A stretch of DNA of 64,000 nucleotides, from assembly GCF_030013205.1 (NCBI RefSeq), contig NZ_CP122648.1. The stretch is one strand, 5' to 3'. The notes beneath the pieces are model-generated. The model was not told where the DNA came from. It did no database searches and saw only the letters and a program-made list of their open reading frames with translations. Position numbers and translations under genes: made by a program. Positions 2,239-63,790 of the stretch are shown piece after piece (position 1 is the stretch's first letter; every line of letters starts with the position of its first letter). This DNA comes from Escherichia coli. GTDB taxonomy: Bacteria > Pseudomonadota > Gammaproteobacteria > Enterobacterales > Enterobacteriaceae.

Positions 2239-2865
2239 ATGAAGATCGTGGAAGTCAAACACCCACTCGTCAAACACAAGCTGGGACTGATGCGTGAGCA
2301 AGATATCAGCACCAAGCGCTTTCGCGAACTCGCTTCCGAAGTGGGTAGCCTGCTGACTTACGAAGCGACCGCCGACCTCGAAACGGAAAAAGTCACTATC
2401 GAAGGCTGGAACGGCCCGGTAGAAATCGATCAGATCAAAGGTAAGAAAATTACCGTTGTGCCAATTCTGCGTGCCGGTCTGGGGATGATGGACGGTGTGC
2501 TGGAAAACGTTCCGAGCGCGCGTATCAGCGTCGTCGGTATGTACCGTAATGAAGAAACGCTGGAGCCGGTACCGTACTTCCAGAAACTGGTTTCTAACAT
2601 CGATGAGCGTATGGCGCTGATCGTTGACCCAATGCTGGCAACCGGTGGTTCCGTTATCGCGACCATCGACCTGCTGAAAAAAGCGGGCTGCAGCAGCATC
2701 AAAGTTCTGGTGCTGGTAGCTGCACCAGAAGGTATCGCTGCGCTGGAAAAAGCGCACCCGGACGTCGAACTGTATACTGCATCGATTGACCAGGGACTGA
2801 ACGAGCACGGATACATTATTCCGGGCCTCGGCGATGCCGGTGACAAAATCTTTGGTACGAAATAA
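2239..2865 (+). CDS. upp: uracil phosphoribosyltransferase
   Basis: 208 aa starting [24 protein letters not shown] aggaga at 2227..2232; ORF-track N-terminal extension discarded. Confidence 0.95.
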
Positions 2866-2881
2866 AGAATAAAAATAATTA

Positions 2882-2910
2882 AAGCCGACTTTAAGAGTCG
2901 GCTTTTTTTT
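2882..2910 (+). terminator. rho-independent terminator/attenuator between upp and uraA
   Basis: Hairpin aagccgact-ttaag-agtcggctt followed by T8. Confidence 0.6.
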
Positions 2911-2950
2911 GAGTAAAGCGCCTATAACACATAATACAGAGGATAATACT

Positions 2951-4240
2951 ATGACGCGCCGTGCTATCGGGGTGAGTGAAAGACCGCCACTTTTACAGAC
3001 AATCCCGCTTAGTTTGCAACATTTGTTCGCCATGTTTGGTGCAACCGTCCTGGTGCCCGTCTTATTTCATATTAACCCGGCGACTGTACTGTTATTTAAC
3101 GGTATAGGAACACTGCTGTATCTCTTCATCTGTAAAGGGAAAATTCCGGCTTATCTTGGTTCCAGCTTTGCCTTTATTTCACCGGTATTGTTACTGTTGC
3201 CGTTAGGGTATGAAGTCGCGCTGGGCGGCTTTATTATGTGCGGCGTGCTGTTCTGCCTGGTTTCTTTTATCGTGAAGAAAGCGGGGACCGGCTGGCTGGA
3301 CGTGCTGTTTCCACCTGCGGCAATGGGCGCAATCGTTGCCGTCATCGGTCTGGAGCTGGCGGGCGTAGCTGCCGGTATGGCGGGTTTACTCCCGGCTGAA
3401 GGGCAAACGCCAGACTCCAAAACCATCATCATCTCCATTACCACCCTGGCGGTTACGGTTTTAGGTTCCGTGCTGTTTCGTGGTTTCCTGGCAATTATCC
3501 CGATTTTAATTGGCGTGCTGGTGGGCTACGCGCTCTCTTTCGCAATGGGAATTGTCGATACCACGCCGATTATTAATGCTCACTGGTTTGCGCTGCCAAC
3601 TCTCTATACGCCGCGCTTCGAGTGGTTTGCCATTCTGACTATTCTACCAGCGGCGTTAGTGGTTATTGCCGAACACGTAGGGCACCTGGTGGTAACGGCT
3701 AATATCGTCAAAAAAGATCTGCTGCGCGATCCAGGTCTGCACCGTTCGATGTTTGCTAACGGCTTGTCGACCGTGATCTCCGGCTTCTTTGGCTCCACGC
3801 CAAATACCACCTACGGGGAAAACATTGGCGTGATGGCGATCACCCGTGTTTACAGTACCTGGGTTATCGGCGGGGCGGCGATTTTCGCTATCCTGCTTTC
3901 CTGCGTCGGTAAACTGGCTGCTGCTATCCAGATGATCCCATTGCCGGTGATGGGCGGCGTTTCGCTGCTGCTTTATGGTGTCATCGGTGCTTCCGGTATT
4001 CGTGTTTTGATCGAATCGAAAGTGGATTACAACAAAGCACAGAACCTGATCCTGACTTCCGTGATTTTGATCATCGGTGTCAGTGGCGCGAAGGTAAACA
4101 TCGGCGCGGCGGAGCTGAAAGGTATGGCGCTGGCGACCATCGTCGGTATCGGCTTAAGTTTGATCTTCAAACTGATTAGTGTGCTGCGCCCTGAAGAAGT
4201 GGTGCTGGACGCAGAAGACGCGGATATAACAGACAAATAA
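2951..4240 (+). CDS. uraA: uracil:proton symporter (NCS2 family)
   Basis: 429 aa starting [21 protein letters not shown]; multi-TM; RBS at 2937..2944. Confidence 0.95.
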
Positions 4241-4334
4241 TGTACCGACCGGGCAGTGTTGCTGCCCGGTTCAAACATCATGGGATTCTGTGGTAAACTT
4301 CTCGCGATTTTGTGAAATCCTGGTTGAGGTATCT

Positions 4335-5036
4335 CTGAACACACCGGCACAGCTCTCTTTGCCACTTTATCTTCCTGACGACGAAACCTTTGCAAGTTTC
4401 TGGCCGGGGGATAACTCCTCTTTACTGGCCGCGCTGCAAAACGTGCTGCGTCAGGAACATAGCGGTTACATCTATCTCTGGGCACGCGAAGGCGCGGGGC
4501 GCAGCCATCTGCTGCACGCGGCTTGCGCGGAATTGTCGCAGCGTGGCGATGCGGTGGGCTATGTCCCGCTGGATAAACGCACCTGGTTTGTTCCGGAAGT
4601 GCTCGACGGTATGGAGCATTTGTCGCTGGTCTGTATCGACAACATTGAGTGTATTGCAGGCGATGAGTTGTGGGAGATGGCGATTTTCGATCTCTACAAT
4701 CGAATTCTGGAATCGGGCAAAACACGATTGTTGATCACCGGCGATCGTCCACCGCGGCAGTTGAATCTTGGACTACCGGATCTCGCGTCGCGTCTCGACT
4801 GGGGGCAGATCTACAAATTGCAGCCACTTTCTGATGAAGATAAGTTGCAGGCGCTACAGTTACGCGCGCGTTTGCGTGGTTTTGAACTGCCGGAAGATGT
4901 GGGGCGTTTCTTGCTGAAGCGGCTCGACAGAGAGATGCGCACGTTATTTATGACGTTGGATCAGTTGGATCGTGCGTCGATTACCGCGCAACGTAAGCTG
5001 ACCATTCCGTTTGTGAAAGAAATTCTGAAGTTGTAG
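4335..5036 (+). CDS. hda: DnaA-inactivating AAA+ protein Hda
   Basis: 233 aa reading frame beginning at CTG 4335 ([19 protein letters not shown]...); ORF track offers a 248 aa GTG-initiated version at 4290. Confidence 0.85.
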
Positions 5037-8327: not shown

Positions 8328-9175
8328 TTAGGGTTCCTGACGTAAATAAATAGCCCGATAACAAATACTCACCAGCACTGCACCGCCGATAATATTACCC
8401 AGCATCACCGGGAGCAGATTGGCGGTAATAAAATGGCTGACCGTCAGTGCCGGAAAATTGTCTGCGCTACTGTGCGCCAGTTGCCAGAAGGGGGAGGGGC
8501 GAAATGGCGAATGGCAATGGCGAACGGAATCACAAACAAATTGGCGATACAGTGCTCAAAGCCACTGGCGACAAACAGGGTGATGGGCAAAATCATGGCG
8601 ACGATTTTGTCGCATAATGAACGCCCGCAATAACTCATCCACAGCGCCAGGCAAACCATCAGATTGCACATAATGCCGAGGCTGACAGATTCAGTAAATG
8701 TATGATGCATTTTGCCCTCGGCGCAGTGTAAAACCGCGACTCCCCACATCGCGTTTTCACTCATCACCAGCCCGGAAAACCAGATTAACAAACTGAAACA
8801 GGCAATACCTGCCAGATTACCGCAGGCCACCAGAAGTGCATTAATCAGCCATGTTCGCCAGCTAATAACGCCCCGACTTTTTGCCATCACCGTCATTACC
8901 GACGAGGTGAACAGGCTGGTGCCGCAAACCGCCAGCAAAATAAAGCCGAGTGTAAAGCAAAGGCCACCCACCAGATGGGTTAATGCCTGTGAAGACGGGG
9001 CATCGGCGATAACGGAAAGGTAAAAAGTAAATCCGATCGCCATAAACACGCCAGCGGACATCGCCATTAAAAAGACCGACACTTTGCTGCGGGCAATTTT
9101 ATGGGCGGCAATCCGTTCAGCGATTGCCGCTTTTCTGGCGCTCAACTGCAAGTCGAAAGAGAGTTTGTTTCTCAT
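8328..9175 (-). pseudogene. focB: formate channel FocB (FNT family) with apparent -1 frameshift near 8485..8495
   Basis: ORF stops at 8444 after 243 aa; the conserved FNT C-terminus (FWQLAHSSADNFPALTVSHFITANLLPVMLGNIIGGAVLVSICYRAIYLRQEP) continues in another frame to stop at 8328. Confidence 0.65.
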
Positions 9176-28009: not shown

Positions 28010-30025
28010 ATGGCTGAACTAACTGCGCTTCACACATTAACAGCGCAAATGAAACGTGAAGGGATCCGCCGCTTGCTGGTGTTGAGCGGGGAAGAGGGTT
28101 GGTGTTTTGATCATGCGCTTAAGTTGCGTGATGCCTTACCTGGCGACTGGCTGTGGATTTCGCCGCAGCCAGATGCTGAAAACCACTGTTCACCCTCGGC
28201 GCTACAAACTTTACTTGGGCGCGAGTTCCGGCATGCGGTATTCGACGCCCGCCACGGCTTTGATGCCGCTGCCTTTGCGGCACTTAGCGGAACGTTGAAA
28301 GCGGGAAGTTGGCTGGTTTTGTTACTCCCTGTATGGGAAGAGTGGGAAAACCAACCTGATGCCGACTCGCTGCGCTGGAGTGATTGCCCTGACCCTATTG
28401 CGACGCCGCATTTTGTCCAGCATCTCAAACGCGTACTTACGGCGGATAACGACGCTATTCTCTGGCGGCAAAACCAGCCGTTCTCGTTGGCGCATTTTAC
28501 TCCCCGTACTGACTGGCACCCCGCGACCGGCGCACCACAACCAGAACAACAGCAACTCTTACAGCAGCTACTGACCATGCCGCCGGGCGTGGCAGCGGTA
28601 ACTGCTGCGCGTGGGCGCGGTAAATCGGCGTTGGCAGGGCAACTCATTTCTCGTATTGCGGGCAGTGCGATTGTCACCGCGCCCGCAAAAGCGGCAACGG
28701 ATGTACTGGCACAATTTGCGGGCGAGAAGTTTCGCTTTATTGCGCCGGATGCCTTGTTAGCCAGCGATGAGCAAGCCGACTGGCTGGTGGTCGATGAAGC
28801 CGCAGCTATACCTGCGCCGTTGTTGCATCAACTGGTATCGCGTTTTCCTCGAACGTTGTTAACCACTACGGTGCAGGGCTACGAAGGCACCGGACGTGGT
28901 TTTTTGCTGAAATTTTGCGCTCGCTTTCCGCATTTACACCGTTTTGAACTACAACAGCCGATCCGCTGGGCGCAGGGATGCCCGCTGGAAAAAATGGTTA
29001 GTGAGGCACTGGTGTTTGACGATGAAAACTTCACCCATACACCACAAGGCAATATCGTCATTGCCGCATTTGAACAGACGTTATGGCGAAGTGAGCCAGA
29101 AACGCCGTTAAAGGTTTATCAGCTATTGTCTGGTGCGCACTACCGGACCTCGCCGCTGGATTTACGCCGCATGATGGATGCACCAGGGCAACATTTTTTA
29201 CAGGCGGCTGGCGACAACGAGATTGCCGGGGCGCTGTGGCTGGTGGATGAGGGGGGATTATCTCAACAACTCAGTCAGGCGGTATGGGCGGGTTTTCGTC
29301 GCCCGCGGGGTAATCTGGTGGCTCAGTCGCTGGCGGCGCACGGCAGCAATCCTCTGGCGGCGACATTGCGCGGACGGCGGGTCAGCCGGATAGCAGTTCA
29401 TCCGGCTCGTCAGCGGGAAGGCACAGGGCGGCAACTTATTGCTGGTGCTTTGCAATATACGCGTGACCTCGACTATCTTTCGGTGAGTTTTGGTTACACC
29501 GGGGAGTTATGGCGTTTCTGGCAACGCTGCGGTTTTGTGCTGGTGCGAATGGGTAATCATCGTGAAGCCAGCAGCGGTTGCTATACGGCGATGGCGTTGT
29601 TACCGATGAGTGATGCGGGTAAACAGCTGGCTGAACGTGAGCATTACCGTTTACGTCGCGATGCGCAAGCTCTCGCGCAGTGGAATGGCGAAACGCTCCC
29701 TGTTGATCCACTAAACGATGCCGTCCTTTCTGACGACGACTGGCTTGAACTGGCCGGTTTTGCTTTCGCTCATCGTCCGCTATTAACGTCGTTAGGTTGC
29801 TTAATGCGTCTGTTACAAACCAGCGAACTGGCATTACCGGCGCTGCGTGGGCGTTTACAGAAAAACGCCAGTGACGCGCAGTTATGTACCACACTTAAAC
29901 TTTCAGGCCGTAAGCTGTTACTGGTCCGTCAACGCGAAGAAGCCGCGCAGGCGCTGTTCGCACTTAATTATGTTCGCACTGAGCGTCTGCGCGATCGCAT
30001 AACGCAATGGCAATTTTTTCACTGA
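28010..30025 (+). CDS. tmcA: tRNA(Met) cytidine acetyltransferase
   Basis: 671 aa, Walker A ARGRGKSA, C-terminal GNAT-like region. Confidence 0.9.
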   Translation: MAELTALHTLTAQMKREGIRRLLVLSGEEGWCFDHALKLRDALPGDWLWISPQPDAENHCSPSALQTLLGREFRHAVFDARHGFDAAAFAALSGTLKAGSWLVLLLPVWEEWENQPDADSLRWSDCPDPIATPHFVQHLKRVLTADNDAILWRQNQPFSLAHFTPRTDWHPATGAPQPEQQQLLQQLLTMPPGVAAVTAARGRGKSALAGQLISRIAGSAIVTAPAKAATDVLAQFAGEKFRFIAPDALLASDEQADWLVVDEAAAIPAPLLHQLVSRFPRTLLTTTVQGYEGTGRGFLLKFCARFPHLHRFELQQPIRWAQGCPLEKMVSEALVFDDENFTHTPQGNIVIAAFEQTLWRSEPETPLKVYQLLSGAHYRTSPLDLRRMMDAPGQHFLQAAGDNEIAGALWLVDEGGLSQQLSQAVWAGFRRPRGNLVAQSLAAHGSNPLAATLRGRRVSRIAVHPARQREGTGRQLIAGALQYTRDLDYLSVSFGYTGELWRFWQRCGFVLVRMGNHREASSGCYTAMALLPMSDAGKQLAEREHYRLRRDAQALAQWNGETLPVDPLNDAVLSDDDWLELAGFAFAHRPLLTSLGCLMRLLQTSELALPALRGRLQKNASDAQLCTTLKLSGRKLLLVRQREEAAQALFALNYVRTERLRDRITQWQFFH

Positions 30026-30098
30026 CTCCTTCAATTTTCTCCCATGGTCATTGTGAGTCAGCGGCGTAAAATTAATGACATCAGTTAAGGAGTTCGCC

Positions 30099-30797
30099 AT
30101 GAAACATGACCATTTTGTTGTTCAAAGCCCGGATAAACCTGCGCAACAGTTGTTACTGCTTTTCCACGGTGTCGGGGATAACCCGGTGGCAATGGGGGAA
30201 ATAGGTAGCTGGTTTGCACCGCTGTTTCCTGATGCGCTGGTGGTGAGTGTCGGTGGCGTGGAGCCGAGCGGTAATCCGGCGGGGCGTCAGTGGTTTTCGG
30301 TGCAGGGTATTACGGAAGATAATCGCCAGGCACGTGTGGATGCCATCATGCCGACGTTTATTGAAACGGTGCGCTACTGGCAGAAACAGAGCGGAGTAGG
30401 GGCTAACGCCACGGCGCTAATCGGTTTCTCACAAGGCGCGATTATGGCGCTGGAGAGCATTAAAGCCGAACCGGGCCTTGCTTCGCGCGTCATTGCCTTC
30501 AACGGACGCTACGCGAGCCTGCCGGAAACCGCGTCTACAGCCACGACAATTCACCTGATTCATGGCGGTGAAGATCCTGTTATCGATCTGGCGCATGCGG
30601 TTGCGGCGCAGGAAGCGTTAATCAGTGCCGGTGGTGATGTGACGCTGGATATCGTGGAGGATTTAGGCCATGCGATCGACAATCGCAGTATGCAATTTGC
30701 CCTGGATCACTTGCGTTATACCATTCCGAAACATTATTTCGACGAAGCGCTAAGTGGCGGTAAGCCTGGCGATGATGATGTGATTGAAATGATGTAA
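30099..30797 (+). CDS. ypfH: esterase/phospholipase-carboxylesterase family protein
   Basis: 232 aa starting MKHDHFVVQSPDKPAQQ; GFSQGA (GxSxG) nucleophile elbow. Confidence 0.85.
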   Translation: MKHDHFVVQSPDKPAQQLLLLFHGVGDNPVAMGEIGSWFAPLFPDALVVSVGGVEPSGNPAGRQWFSVQGITEDNRQARVDAIMPTFIETVRYWQKQSGVGANATALIGFSQGAIMALESIKAEPGLASRVIAFNGRYASLPETASTATTIHLIHGGEDPVIDLAHAVAAQEALISAGGDVTLDIVEDLGHAIDNRSMQFALDHLRYTIPKHYFDEALSGGKPGDDDVIEMM

Positions 30798-30802
30798 TAA
30801 TA

Positions 30803-30872
30803 GCCGGGTAGGCCTGATAAGACCGTATCAGGCATCATGGCCGGATGCGGCGTTAACGCCTTATCCGGCCAC
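30803..30872. repeat. REP elements (inverted pair)
   Basis: gccgggtaggcctgataagaccgtatcaggc ... gccggatgcggcgttaacgccttatccggcc. Confidence 0.75.
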
Positions 30873-30877
30873 TCAGC

Positions 30878-31078
30878 TTACTTCTTCGGTTGATCCTTTT
30901 TCGGCCAGTCGTCGTCATCGTCCCACTTATCGTTGAAATCACGATGCGGGGGAAGCTCCGGCTTGTTGGCGAGAAATTTCTTATGGTCGACGCGCTTGAG
31001 ATCTTTAATCACGTTCAGCAGGACGCCTACCAAAAAGACAATCACCAGAATCCACCAATATTTAGCCAGCCAGTCCAT
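30878..31078 (-). CDS. ypfN: small membrane protein YpfN (UPF0370)
   Basis: 66 aa [25 protein letters not shown]...acidic/basic tail. Confidence 0.8.
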
Positions 31079-31105
31079 GCTTATTTCCTCTTGCAGAACC
31101 ACTCA

Positions 31106-32233
31106 TCAGGCGACGAGCTGTTCCATGATACGTTGATACATACGGGCAAGTAGCTGCAGGTCGGCAGCGTTCACACATTCATTAATTTTATGAATAGTGG
31201 CATTGACCGGCCCGAGTTCCACCACCTGCGCCCCCATGCGGGCAATAAAGCGCCCGTCGGACGTTCCGCCTGTGGTCAGTAGCTGCGGTTTAATTTCATT
31301 ATAGTGCTCAACCGCGTTAACGACCGCATCCACCAGTTTACCTCGCGCGGTCAAAAATGGCTGCCCGGAAAGCCACCAATCCACCGTATAGCGCAGTTGA
31401 TGTTTTTCAAGCAGGGCAAGTACCTGCGCTTTGATCATCTCATCAGTCAGTTCGGTACTGAAGCGGAAGTTAAACTGCACAAACAGTTCACCCGGAATAA
31501 CGTTGTTACTGCCCGTTCCCGCCTGAATATTGGCAATCTGCATACTGGTCGCCGGGAAGAATTCATTGCCCTGATCCCACTCAATAGCCACTAATTCATT
31601 AAGGAAAGGTGCTGCGCGATGTACCGGATTGTCAGCCAGATGTGGGTAGGCAACATGCCCCTGCACGCCATGAATGGTGAGGTTGCAGGTTAACGATCCG
31701 CGACGACCATTTTTCACCACATCACCAACCACTTCGATACTCGACGGTTCGCCGACCAGGCAGTAATCGAGACGCTCATTACGCGCCATTAACGCTTCGA
31801 CGACTTTTACCGTACCGTTGTGGGCACTGGCTTCTTCATCAGAGGTGATTAGAAATGCCAGTCGACCTGCATGGTTGGGATGTTGTGCGACAAAGCGTTC
31901 TGCCGCTACCACCATCGCTGCCAGCGAGCCTTTCATATCTGCCGCACCGCGCCCGAATAACATACCGTCACGAATGGTGGGTTCAAACGGCGGATTGATC
32001 CAACGATCGGCGTCGCCAGGCGGCACCACGTCGGTATGCCCGGCAAAGGCCAACGTTTCACCTTGCCCACGCCATGCCCAAAAATTCTGCGTATCGGCAA
32101 AATCCATGCGTTCAACGGTAAAACCGATCGCCTGCAAACGTTCAATCAACAAAGCCTGGCATCCTGCGTCATCAGGACTCAGGGAAGGGCGGCGAATAAG
32201 CTGTTGTGTCAGCTCAATAACCGGGCACGACAT
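31106..32233 (-). CDS. dapE: succinyl-diaminopimelate desuccinylase
   Basis: 375 aa M20 peptidase family, matches DapE. Confidence 0.95.
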
Positions 32234-32236
32234 AGA

Positions 32237-32611
<375 letters not shown>

Positions 32612-32973
32612 TTATGAGAATAAATACTCATTTAAGAGTGAAAACATTTTGCCTGCAAATGATTATCAGGAAATATAACATTATCGAAGTATTCAAATTA
32701 ACAACTATTAAATAATATTAAACATTTTTAACGTAAACATTAAGAATATTCATCTTGTTATCTGTCTGTATTTTAACCAGAATTAAATCAGTATTAGATG
32801 CCGTATGAATATCTCGAAATGTTGCTGTGTATCACATACAAATCATCACCGCAGGACCATAGTATTTACATAAGGTTTGTCCCCCGGAGGTAGTCATCGC
32901 AGCAATCGAGTAAATTAGCTTCACCACGGTATATTGTTTCCGTAGAATACCCATAATTATAAGAGAGGTTGTT

Positions 32974-33033
32974 ATGATTGAACGTGAACTGGGGAACTGG
33001 AAAGACTTTATCGAAGTTATGCTTCGTAAGTAA
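32974..33033 (+). CDS. ypfM: small protein YpfM (19 aa)
   Basis: ATG ATT GAA CGT GAA CTG GGG AAC TGG AAA GAC TTT ATC GAA GTT ATG CTT CGT AAG TAA = MIERELGNWKDFIEVMLRK; strong RBS aagagagg 6 nt upstream. Confidence 0.7.
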   Translation: MIERELGNWKDFIEVMLRK

Positions 33034-33098
33034 TTCCTGAGACAAAGTACAAACAGCAAGAACCTGCTGAGCAGGTTCTTAATCGGAAAGTTGAAAAG

Positions 33099-33127
33099 GG
33101 CGACACATTGGCATGTCGCCTTTTTTA
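33099..33127. terminator. bidirectional rho-independent terminator (acrD and ypfM)
   Basis: Hairpin ggcgaca-cattggca-tgtcgcc flanked by A-run upstream and T-run downstream. Confidence 0.65.
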
Positions 33128-33131
33128 TTGC

Positions 33132-36100
33132 TTATTCCGGGCGCGGCTTCAGCGGGAAGCGGCGGCGCACTAGCACAAAGAACAGCGGCACGAAGTAAAT
33201 AGCCAGAATAGTGGCCGAAATCATCCCGCCCATTACGCCAGTACCCACCGCATGCTGACCACCGGAACCGGCACCCGTGCTGGTTGCCATTGGCAATACG
33301 CCGAAGATAAATGCCAGCGAGGTCATCAGAATCGGGCGTAAACGCTGACGGCAGGCGTGGAGCGTCGCTTCAAACAGGTCGTGGCCTTTTTGGTTCATCT
33401 CGTTAGCAAACTCGACGATCAGGATGGCGTTTTTCGCCGATAAACCAATGACCGTTAACAGGCCCACCTGGAAGTAAACGTCGTTTTCCAGCCCGCGCAT
33501 CCAGGTTGCCAGCAGCGCGCCGATAACCCCCAGCGGCACGACCAGCATTACCGAGAACGGCACCGACCAGCTTTCATACAACGCAGCCAGACACAGGAAT
33601 ACCACCAGCAAGGAAATGGCGTACAGCGCCGGAGCCTGCGCGCCGGAAAGTCGCTCCTGATACGACATCGCCGTCCACTCCAGACCAAAGCCGTTTGGCA
33701 ACTGCTTCACTAACGATTCCATAATATCCATCGCCGTACCGGTACTGACCCCCGGTGCGGCTTCCCCAACAATCTCAACCGCAGAATAACCGTTATAGCG
33801 TTCCAGACGCGGCGAGCCTGTTTCCCAGCGTGAGGTCGCGAAAGCAGAGAAGGGCACCATGCCGCCATCTTTATTTCGGACATACCAGAGATTGATGTCA
33901 TCTGGCAGCATGCGATATAGCGCAGCTGCCTGCACATAGACTTTCTTCACGCGACCGCGATCCATAAAGTCATTCACATAGCTCGAACCCCAGGCGGTTT
34001 GCAGTGTGTCGTTAATATCGTCGATAGCAACGCCCAGCGCCTGAGCTTTACGCTGGTCGATATCAATCTGCAACTGCGGACTGTCGTCGAGGCCGTTATG
34101 GCGCACACGGGTTAGCTCCGGGTTTTCCGCCGCCAGCGCCAGCAACTGGTTACGTGCTGCCATCAGCGCATCGTGACCCGCTCCAGCGTGGTCCTGCAAC
34201 TCCATATCAAAACCCGCAGAACTACCAAGACCGCTAATTGCTGGCGGGCTGCTGGCGATAACGCGAGCTTCTTTAATCTTGTTAAACGCCTTCGTTGCAC
34301 GCTCGATAATGGCAAACGAGGTGCCGGTCTTACTGTCGCGTTCGCTCCAGTCTTTCAGGCGGATAAACATTCTCGCCACGTTTTGCCCGTTACCCCCAGG
34401 GCCAGAACCAACGGTGGCAAACACCGACATGATGTTGTCTTTTTCATGGGTGAAGTAGTATTTCTCGATTTGCTCAACGACTTTCAGGGTCTGTTGTTGG
34501 GTTGAACCGCTGGGCAACTGTACCGAGGTAGTAAACATGCCCCGGTCTTCCAGTGGCAAGAACGACGTCGGCAAACGCAGGAACAGGAACACCATGCCGC
34601 CAAGCAGCAGGACATAAATCACAATCCAGCGCAGGCTACGGTGGAGAATTTTCGCCACCCCTTTTTCGTAGCGTTCGGCGTTGCGGTTAAACATCTGGTT
34701 AAACCAGGCAAAAAAGCCTTTTTGCCCGTGATGCTCACCCTTTTTCAGTGGCTTAAGTAGCGTGGCACACAGAGCCGGAGTGAGGATCATCGCTACCAGT
34801 ACTGACAGCACCATCGCCGCAACAATGGTAATAGAGAACTGGCGATAGATGGCACCGGTGGTGCCGCCGAAGAAGGCCATTGGTACAAATACCGCCGAAA
34901 GCACCATCGCAATCCCGACCAGTGCCCCCTGGATCTGCCCCATCGATTTACGTGTGGCTTCGCGAGGAGTGAGTCCTTCCTCACTCATAATACGTTCGAC
35001 GTTTTCCACCACCACGATGGCGTCATCCACCAGCAGACCGATCGCCAGCACCATTGCGAACATGGTTAAGGTGTTGACGCTGTAACCGAAGGCGTAAAGT
35101 ACGGAGAAGGTTCCCATCAACACCACCGGCACGGCGATAGTGGGTATCAGCGTGGCGCGGAAGTTTTGCAGGAACAGATACATAACGAGGAAAACCAGAG
35201 CGATAGCTTCCAGCAGCGTTTTCACCACGTCTTCAATGGAGGCTTTAACAAACGAGGTGGTTTCATACGCCACCTTGTATTCCAGTCCGTGCGGGAAATA
35301 CTGCGCCAGCTCGTCGAGACGATTGAGCACCAGCTCCGCTGTCGCCATTTCGTTCGCGCCGGAGGCCAGTTTTACCCCCAACCCGGAGGCTGGCTTACCA
35401 TTGAAGCGGCTAAGATAATCGTATTTCTCCGCCCCCATTTCGACGGTGGCGACATCGCCCAGCCTTACCTCTGAGCCGTCCTGATTCACCCGCAAGGTGA
35501 TATCGCGGAACTGTTCTGGTGTTTGCAGCAGTGACTGGGCGTTAATGGTGGCGTTGAGCGCCTGCTTATCGACGGAAGGCGTACCACCAAGTTGCCCAAC
35601 CGCAATCTGCGCGTTCTGTGACTCAATGGCATCAGTGACATCTTTAGCCGTCATCTGGAAACTGTTGAGTTTCGCCGGGTCCAGCCAGATACGCATGGAA
35701 TATTGCGAACCATAGGCATCGATATCCCCGACGCCATTCACGCGGCTTAACGGGTCCTGAATATTACTGGCAACATAATCGGCAATATCCTGTTTATCCA
35801 TCGAACCATCGGTAGAGACGAAGGCAATGGTCAGAATATTGGTATCGCCGGTTTTACGCACCGTCACGCCCTGATTTTGCACCGCCTGCGGTAACTTTCG
35901 CATGGCTGATTGCAGCTGGTTTTGTACTTGCTGCACGGCTTCGTCCGGATCGGTGCCTGCTTTAAAACTTAAAGTGACAGATGCCTGGCCGGTGCCACTG
36001 CTCTGAGACGACATATACATGAGATTATCGAGGCCGGTCATATTTTGCTCGATAACCTGGGTCACGGTGTTTTCCAGCGTCTGGGCCGATGCGCCGGGAT

Positions 36101-38314: not shown

Positions 38315-40296
38315 ATGAATCGTTTTATTATGGCCAACAGTCAGCAATGTCTGGGTTGTCATGCTTGTGAAATCGCCTGTGTCATGGCTCACAATGATGA
38401 ACAACATGTCTTGAGCCAACACCATTTTCATCCCCGAATTACGGTTATCAAACATCAGCAGCAACGTAGTGCAGTGACCTGTCACCATTGCGAAGATGCG
38501 CCCTGCGCCCGTAGCTGCCCTAATGGCGCAATCAGCCACGTTGATGACAGCATTCAGGTCAATCAGCAAAAGTGTATTGGCTGTAAATCCTGCGTGGTGG
38601 CCTGTCCATTTGGTACGATGCAAATCGTCCTGACACCCGTCGCGGCGGGCAAAGTAAAAGCCACGGCGCATAAATGCGACCTTTGTGCAGGGCGCGAAAA
38701 CGGTCCTGCCTGTGTCGAGAATTGCCCGGCGGACACGCGCTGCAACTGGTCACTGACGCCGCACTCTCTGGCATGGCGAAATCCCGCCGCTTGCGCACCG
38801 CACGTCAGGAGCATCAACCGTGGCATGCCAGTACCGCGGCACAAGAAATGCCGGTAATGAGTAAAGTCGAGCAAATGCAGGCAACGCCCGCGCGTGGCGA
38901 GCCGGATAAACTGGCGATTGAAGCGCGCAAAACCGGTTTTGATGAAATTTATCTGCCATTCCGTGCCGATCAGGCACAACGGGAAGCCTCGCGCTGCCTT
39001 AAGTGCGGCGAGCACAGCGTTTGTGAATGGACCTGCCCGCTGCATAACCATATTCCACAGTGGATTGAACTGGTGAAAGCCGGAAACATCGACGCCGCCG
39101 TCGAGCTTTCTCACCAGACCAACACCCTGCCGGAAATTACCGGACGCGTTTGTCCGCAAGACCGTTTGTGTGAAGGTGCCTGTACTATTCGCGATGAGCA
39201 CGGCGCAGTAACTATCGGCAACATTGAACGCTACATTTCAGATCAGGCGTTGGCGAAAGGTTGGCGTCCTGACTTAAGCCTTGTCACCAAAGTGGACAAG
39301 CGGGTGGCGATTATCGGTGCGGGTCCGGCAGGGCTGGCCTGTGCGGATGTTCTGACCCGCAATGGCGTGGCGGTGACGGTGTACGATCGCCATCCAGAAA
39401 TCGGTGGCTTGCTCACTTTCGGCATTCCTTCTTTCAAACTGGATAAATCCCTGCTGGCACGCCGTCGGGAAATCTTCAGCGCGATGGGGATTCACTTCGA
39501 ACTCAATTGTGAAGTGGGTAAAGATGTCTCTTTGGATTCGCTTTTGGAACAATACGACGCGGTCTTCGTTGGCGTAGGCACTTACCGTTCCATGAAAGCG
39601 GGTTTACCCAATGAAGATGCGCCGGGCGTTTATGACGCCCTGCCGTTCCTCATCGCCAACACTAAACAGGTGATGGGACTCGAAGAGCTACCGGAAGAGC
39701 CGTTTATCAATACCGCCGGACTCAACGTCGTGGTACTGGGCGGCGGCGACACCGCGATGGACTGTGTGCGTACTGCGCTGCGCCACGGCGCGAGTAACGT
39801 CACCTGCGCTTATCGTCGTGATGAAGCTAACATGCCAGGCTCGAAGAAAGAGGTGAAGAACGCCCGCGAAGAGGGGGCCAACTTCGAATTTAACGTCCAG
39901 CCGGTGGCGCTTGAGCTGAATGAACAAGGTCACGTTTGCGGGATTCGTTTCCTGCGTACGCGTCTTGGCGAGCCGGATGCCCAGGGGCGTCGGCGTCCAG
40001 TACCGGTGGAAGGCAGTGAATTTGTCATGCCAGCCGACGCGGTGATTATGGCGTTTGGCTTCAATCCGCACGGGATGCCGTGGCTGGAGTCGCACGGTGT
40101 AACGGTAGACAAATGGGGCCGCATCATCGCGGATGTGGAAAGCCAGTACCGTTATCAGACCACGAATCCGAAAATCTTCGCCGGTGGTGACGCCGTGCGT
40201 GGTGCGGATCTGGTGGTTACCGCAATGGCAGAAGGACGTCATGCGGCACAGGGGATTATTGACTGGCTGGGGGTAAAATCAGTCAAATCTCACTGA
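38315..40296 (+). pseudogene. aegA: anaerobically expressed oxidoreductase AegA (ferredoxin + GltD-like flavoprotein) with apparent 2-nt insertion frameshift near 38733..38737
   Basis: Two overlapping ORFs in different frames (38315..38857 and 38674..40296) together span 1982 nt; N-terminal part has 4 CxxCxxCxxxCP motifs, C-terminal part GltD/NAD(P)-binding; junction reads ...ENCPAD|acac|...ALQLVTDAALSG. Confidence 0.65.

Positions 40297-61830: not shown

Positions 61831-63790
<1,960 letters not shown>

Follow-up and report, generated by a model that had tools for sequence, protein, structure and literature searches.

The aegA gene is split by a two-base insertion in the 64-kb stretch of Escherichia coli DNA analysed here (the window), and the locus is best read as a strain-specific loss-of-function allele of aegA produced by a 2-nt duplication in a porcine ETEC clone; the probability assigned to this reading is roughly 0.7. 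The insertion is an additional AC dinucleotide, which is judged to be probably a real mutation rather than an artefact of assembly; it breaks the frame between an N-terminal ferredoxin module and a C-terminal GltD-like flavoprotein module, and the coordinates of the resulting features are collected in the table below. The frameshift itself is already known, as RefSeq annotation has flagged it: on the identical sequence in NZ_CP122643.1, PGAP reports 'aegA ... frameshifted' and labels the gene as pseudo. The feature is not of a new kind.

Coordinates of the aegA locus and its parts in the window
Feature	Position	Strand	Remarks
aegA locus, frameshifted pseudogene	38315..40296	+	1982 nt, against 1980 nt in relatives
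ORF1	38315..38857	+	180 aa, four Cys clusters (ORF list, Pfam, NCBIfam)
ORF2	38674..40296	+	540 aa as mechanically listed, GltD-like (ORF list, Pfam, NCBIfam)
ACAC, ancestral AC plus 2-nt tandem duplicate (frameshifting lesion)	38733..38736	+	alignment gap against K_EC180 and ETEC4067
TAATG, ORF1 stop overlapping the in-frame AegA Met181 codon	38855..38859	+	stop TAA 38855..38857, ATG 38857..38859

The lesion is a second AC in the ACAC tract, in which either copy may be the newer one; the sequence reads GGACACGCG here as against GGACGCG in relatives, and alignment leaves a clean 2-nt gap (GG--ACGCG) in both K_EC180 and ETEC4067 at the insertion site. When one AC is deleted, the result is a 1980-nt ORF whose DNA matches aegA of K_EC180 exactly and which encodes the intact 659-aa AegA of the sister strains (WP_063085333.1), with the protein reading ...CVENCPADALQLVTDAALSG... 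without interruption; across 8 kb around aegA the AC is the sole difference from K_EC180. The initial annotation had described two overlapping ORFs at this locus, and the ORF list confirms their coordinates and content; their joint span of 1982 nt does correspond to a gene of 1980 nt (659 codons) plus 2 nt, and the junction gcg gac ac gcg ctg is present in the sequence as described. The accompanying proposal that removing an AC would restore a continuous 659-aa protein is borne out by the alignment, by the exact DNA identity to K_EC180 and by a full-length score against the AegA family model NF009408; the end of the tract had been placed at 38737, one base too far downstream. A genuine expansion of a dinucleotide repeat was also thought plausible. 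The 2-nt insertion stands, but the ancestral sequence has one AC only (GGACGCG), so no pre-existing repeat grew; instead, a single dinucleotide was duplicated in tandem inside a stretch of alternating purines and pyrimidines, turning ACGCGC into ACACGCGC. The context of the insertion, GGACACGCGC, is free of homopolymers, and Dam, Dcm and EcoKI motifs are absent from the roughly 35 nt to each side of it. Being read directly from the letters, the lesion is a deterministic feature to which chance does not apply.

The aegA locus is flanked by narQ on the minus strand and nudK on the plus strand, the conserved narQ / aegA / nudK context, and ETEC4079, K_EC180 and ETEC4067 all have the same annotated genes next to it. 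ORF1 and ORF2 share 184 nt that are read in different frames, ORF2 being shifted by -1 with respect to ORF1; the junction reads ...TGC CCG GCG GAC AC GCG CTG...; the frame breaks after Asp141, directly 3' of the fourth Cys motif (CDLCAGRENGPACVENCP-AD). ORF1 retains, in residues 1-141, the native HydN-like ferredoxin module of the AegA N-terminus, including all 16 Cys of its four [4Fe-4S] motifs; by Pfam, Fer4-type dicluster domains lie at residues about 52-142, the Fer4_11 match is shorter by only about 3 profile positions, and ORF1 can be aligned to stand-alone HydN. Missing from ORF1 are the terminal β-strand (ALQLV) and the linker, whose place is taken by a 39-residue out-of-frame tail (TRCNWSL...KKCR), which is followed by TAA. 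The first 21 residues of ORF2 are out of frame, native AegA sequence continues in it from 38737 on (A142...), and a complete GltD-like module (Fer4_20 and Pyr_redox_2 by Pfam) lies inside it.

Membership in the AegA family is defined by the NCBIfam equivalog NF009408, which has a curated cutoff of 1003 bits. The repaired protein scores 1395.9 bits over profile positions 1-659 of 659; ORF1 matches profile positions 1-141 only and, at 272.8 bits, falls below the cutoff. A 479-aa product starting at Met181 spans AegA profile positions 181-659 together with the whole TIGR01318 GltD model, and this fragment scores 1037.5 bits against NF009408. The fusion of a four-[4Fe-4S] ferredoxin to Fer4_20 and Pyr_redox_2 in a single polypeptide is absent here, the modules being in different frames, and the locus counts as a pseudogene or split derivative of aegA rather than as an intact family member.

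The two-ORF form of aegA is confined to a single complete genome. A megablast search of 5,426 complete E. coli genomes, with the 1982-nt span as query, finds aegA in 5,425 of them, and a match of 100% over 1982 nt only in NZ_CP122643.1 (ETEC4079, from pig faeces in Belgium), while the other matches listed span 1980 nt; likewise, a 91-nt query centred on the insertion returns one record at 99% identity or above among the complete E. coli genomes. In a sample of full-length matches spread down the whole ranking, 58 of 59 are exactly 1980 nt, including that of S17-1. Comparison with other strains thus agrees with the frameshift suspected in the initial annotation, as the two-ORF arrangement is not shared (29 of the 30 best matches are 1980 nt), aegA of the K-12 derivative S17-1 has the undisturbed length, and the close relatives K_EC180 and ETEC4067 encode AegA in a single ORF. 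At least ten assemblies of the same lineage, produced in the same study with the same pipeline, carry an intact 1980-nt aegA (ETEC1748, ETEC4067 to 4071, ETEC4075, ETEC6333, ETEC6334 and ETEC1701). A 26-mer containing the ACAC has 0 matches in metagenome contigs, where the intact 24-mer used as a positive control has 68; the allele is therefore not detectably circulating, a result that is silent on whether it is real or an artefact. The exact 180-aa and 540-aa ORF products are also absent from the 15-billion-protein Logan/NCBI collection. The window is collinear with NZ_CP122643.1 and differs from it by 1 base in 64 kb, located in a G-run of focB; the AC is kept in both. The window accordingly represents either a different version of the ETEC4079 assembly or a clonal sibling of that strain. 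A marker that ties the window to the ETEC4079 clone is an A/G SNP in hyfG (minus strand) at window position 13315, which is shared by the window and ETEC4079 and not by K_EC180 or ETEC4067, and which is synonymous (Asp452, GAT/GAC).

It is hypothesized that the duplication of AC to ACAC, after codon 141, took place in a recent ancestor of the clone of porcine ETEC to which ETEC4079 or a sibling belongs. Ribosomes that initiate at the native start codon would then leave the frame, add 39 aberrant residues and terminate at the TAA of ORF1, and the electron-input ferredoxin module would be detached from the GltD-like FAD/NAD(P)H module at the C-terminus. With no ribosome-binding site of its own, this second module would probably be made poorly or not at all; a scan of upstream regions detects no Shine-Dalgarno sequence for Met181 or for the other internal starts. 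Loss of AegA function is considered the most likely outcome on the basis of the sequence. In the literature AegA is assigned a role in formate-dependent anaerobic uric-acid utilisation (PMC8097209), and uric acid degradation that depends on formate and FDH-H has been attributed to it (Iwadate and Kato 2019, as described in the passages of PMC8097209 and bioRxiv 10.1101/2022.07.24.501321 that refer to it). YgfT/UacF and YgfK are related enzymes, and aegA was not required under the conditions used in the same bioRxiv study (10.1101/2022.07.24.501321); the gene is reported to be dispensable under some conditions (PMC8097209; bioRxiv 10.1101/2022.07.24.501321; bioRxiv 10.1101/2025.05.19.654654). 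Loss of aegA is likely to be tolerated with the paralogue YgfT/UacF and with YgfK present, since these enzymes exist and aegA is reportedly dispensable in some conditions.

A second damaged allele of aegA is found in GCA_019988955.1 (contig DAEWKI010000023.1; segment coordinates 2582..4440), where 121 nt are deleted at about gene positions 321-441. The deletion is bounded by the imperfect direct repeats GTCCCTGACACCG and GTCACTGACGCCG and removes the fourth Cys cluster; it leaves ORFs of 139 aa and 479 aa, the first ending and the second starting at the TAATG also seen in the window, with the same aberrant tail on the first. The same stop is reached because the length change equals +2 mod 3, as it does with the AC insertion. 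Three further contigs similar to DAEWKI010000023.1 were reported in the search. A 479-aa product present among public proteins was considered as support for the AC allele and was set aside, as it traces to the 121-nt deletion in GCA_019988955.1. Between them the two alleles show repeated disruption of aegA in this lineage, which speaks for a real mutation in the window and fits a gene under weak selection.

Several other genes in and around the window carry lesions or differ between assemblies. The focB gene (minus strand; ORF 8444..9175) has a run of five G at window 8490..8494 as against six in NZ_CP122643.1, K_EC180 and ETEC4067; the shorter run causes a frameshift and gives a FocB of 243 aa instead of 282. 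This G5 allele is shared by 8 complete genomes, of which 4 were produced in the same ONT-only ETEC project, and it is probably a homopolymer consensus error, read as a recurrent miscall because half of its carriers come from that one nanopore-only project. The hyfD gene (16907..18346, minus strand) contains an in-frame TGA at codon 148 (window 17903..17905; ...FEITGG*SWALI...), annotated as 'internal stop' by PGAP in ETEC4079, K_EC180 and ETEC4067; the inactivation of this hydrogenase-4 subunit D is probably real and lineage-wide because all three genomes carry the stop. Together with aegA, these make three damaged formate-related genes in the window. In eutR (61831..62904, plus strand), K_EC180 has one G more in a run at about window 62876 than the window, ETEC4079 and ETEC4067, a difference that goes along with unequal annotated lengths of the gene (1125 nt and 1074 nt) and separate WP accessions. 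An intergenic A-run between gcvR and dapA at window 23296 is one A longer in the window and ETEC4067 than in K_EC180, a further homopolymer on which the assemblies disagree. Outside the window, pdeF (segment 44173..46415, upstream of ppx) is annotated as 'frameshifted; internal stop' in ETEC4079 and likewise in ETEC4067, which makes it a pseudogene common to the lineage. Also outside the window, ETEC4067 has, relative to ETEC4079, an extra RtT sRNA-like unit of about 154 nt by the tRNA-Lys/Val cluster and a second copy of tRNA-Ala (segments compared: about 29035..34000 and about 29076..34264); these differences in the copy number of tRNA-associated tandem repeats are either real or due to assembly collapse.

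The main rival explanation of the aegA lesion is that the gene of the organism is intact at 1980 nt and that the AC was added by nanopore basecalling, consensus building or polishing; this is considered unlikely, while still carrying appreciable weight. It arises from the fact that, among public genomes, the allele is carried by one nanopore-only assembly and no other: the data behind ETEC4079 are exclusively ONT R9.4.1 reads, processed with Bonito 0.4.0, Trycycler and Medaka 1.5.0, and no short-read polishing was applied (PMC10151945). Further points in its favour are the G5/G6 discrepancy at focB, which lies in the same 64-kb window and is seen again in further ONT assemblies from the study, the singleton status of the allele among 5,426 genomes together with its absence from metagenomes, and the otherwise extremely conserved length of aegA. 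Against these stands the context of the insertion, outside homopolymers and outside Dam, Dcm and EcoKI motifs; a 2-nt insertion in a setting that is neither homopolymeric nor a methylation motif does not belong to the usual error class of R9.4.1 data. A basecalling error at a methylation motif was considered specifically and is unsupported, given that no Dam, Dcm or EcoKI motif occurs at the insertion. A systematic error is argued against by the ten or more assemblies of the same lineage and pipeline that have the identical local sequence and lack the AC, and random errors should be very rare at a coverage of about 195x (PMC10151945) with a Trycycler consensus of 10 subsamples. Two differing versions of the sequence, possibly of one assembly, moreover both have the AC. 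An alignment of ETEC4079 with ETEC4067 across about 154 kb shows 9 SNPs and only 3 small indels: the AC itself, a difference in one G-run, and a 24-nt in-frame repeat unit of a prophage gene. This SNP-to-indel ratio is compatible with real divergence, and no gene other than aegA carries a frameshift peculiar to ETEC4079 in the regions compared. Strains 4077, 4078F and 4079, likely siblings, have a common plasmid, and the supplement gives them identical virulence-gene profiles (PMC10151945). On balance the evidence leans towards the insertion being present in the living strain as well as in its assembly.

Two further explanations accept the AC and grant the locus some function. One is a functional gene fission, in which a HydN-like ORF1 and a 479-aa GltD-like flavoprotein, reinitiated at TAATG, would associate non-covalently; this is highly improbable. 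It draws on the presence of 16 of 16 cluster cysteines upstream of the lesion with Fer4_11 short by only about 3 profile positions, on the overlap of the ORF1 stop with Met181 as a candidate termination-reinitiation point, and on the existence of both modules separately in nature, as the 479-aa fragment holds the entire TIGR01318 model and ORF1 resembles HydN; the independent 121-nt deletion allele, gene-called as 139 aa plus 479 aa, also ends at the same TAATG. That allele is, however, clearly non-functional with one whole Cys cluster gone, and the split in the window is conserved nowhere else (1 of 5,426 genomes; the sampled full-length matches are, but for one of 59, 1980 nt long); the internal starts, Met181 included, have no Shine-Dalgarno sequence, and ORF1 is left with 39 junk residues in place of its terminal strand ALQLV and linker. 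A broader form of the proposal, that a real AC duplication brought about a domain fission with active AegA assembled from coupled parts, in a lineage perhaps shedding formate-linked anaerobic functions, is speculative and very unlikely; if true, such formate-linked loss would take in the lineage-wide hyfD nonsense codon, the two independent aegA lesions and possibly focB. The other explanation is that programmed -1 ribosomal frameshifting restores full-length AegA, for which the geometry would suffice, as ORF2 is in the -1 frame and the overlap is 184 nt long. The relatives, however, all encode AegA in one frame and the two-frame arrangement is seen in 1 of 5,426 genomes, and no slippery heptamer of the form X_XXY_YYZ is found anywhere in ORF1; with neither heptamer nor conservation, programmed frameshifting is rejected as vanishingly improbable. 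The preferred reading remains that of a strain-specific loss of function.

At most, one pig ETEC clone is an aegA-deficient natural mutant, which could be a ready-made strain for studying AegA, a protein whose role in anaerobic formate-dependent uric-acid metabolism is poorly understood. The practical value of the locus is that of a quality-control flag: frameshifts from nanopore-only assemblies need confirmation at the level of reads before they are interpreted biologically. The locus is an ordinary frameshift pseudogene specific to one strain, although an error of the nanopore-only assembly keeps a residual probability.

Compared with E. coli AegA as defined by NF009408 ('formate-dependent uric acid utilization protein AegA'), the locus in the window is the same and has the same domain content; it differs from the intact AegA of sister strains in being split after codon 141 into overlapping ORFs of 180 aa and 540 aa. 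The ONT homopolymer indels, of which the focB G-run is an example, resemble the aegA lesion in that both give an apparent frameshift in a conserved gene and both come from the same nanopore-only project; the aegA lesion, however, is 2 nt long, involves no homopolymer and is absent from sibling assemblies, whereas the focB G5 recurs in 4. A further counterpart is the allele of GCA_019988955.1, which is 100% identical to the window over the 740 nt leading to its breakpoint (420 nt upstream and the first 320 nt of the gene), has a frameshift of the same phase and encodes an identical 479-aa C-terminal product; the two lesions are nevertheless different and independent, a 121-nt deletion there and an AC duplication here.
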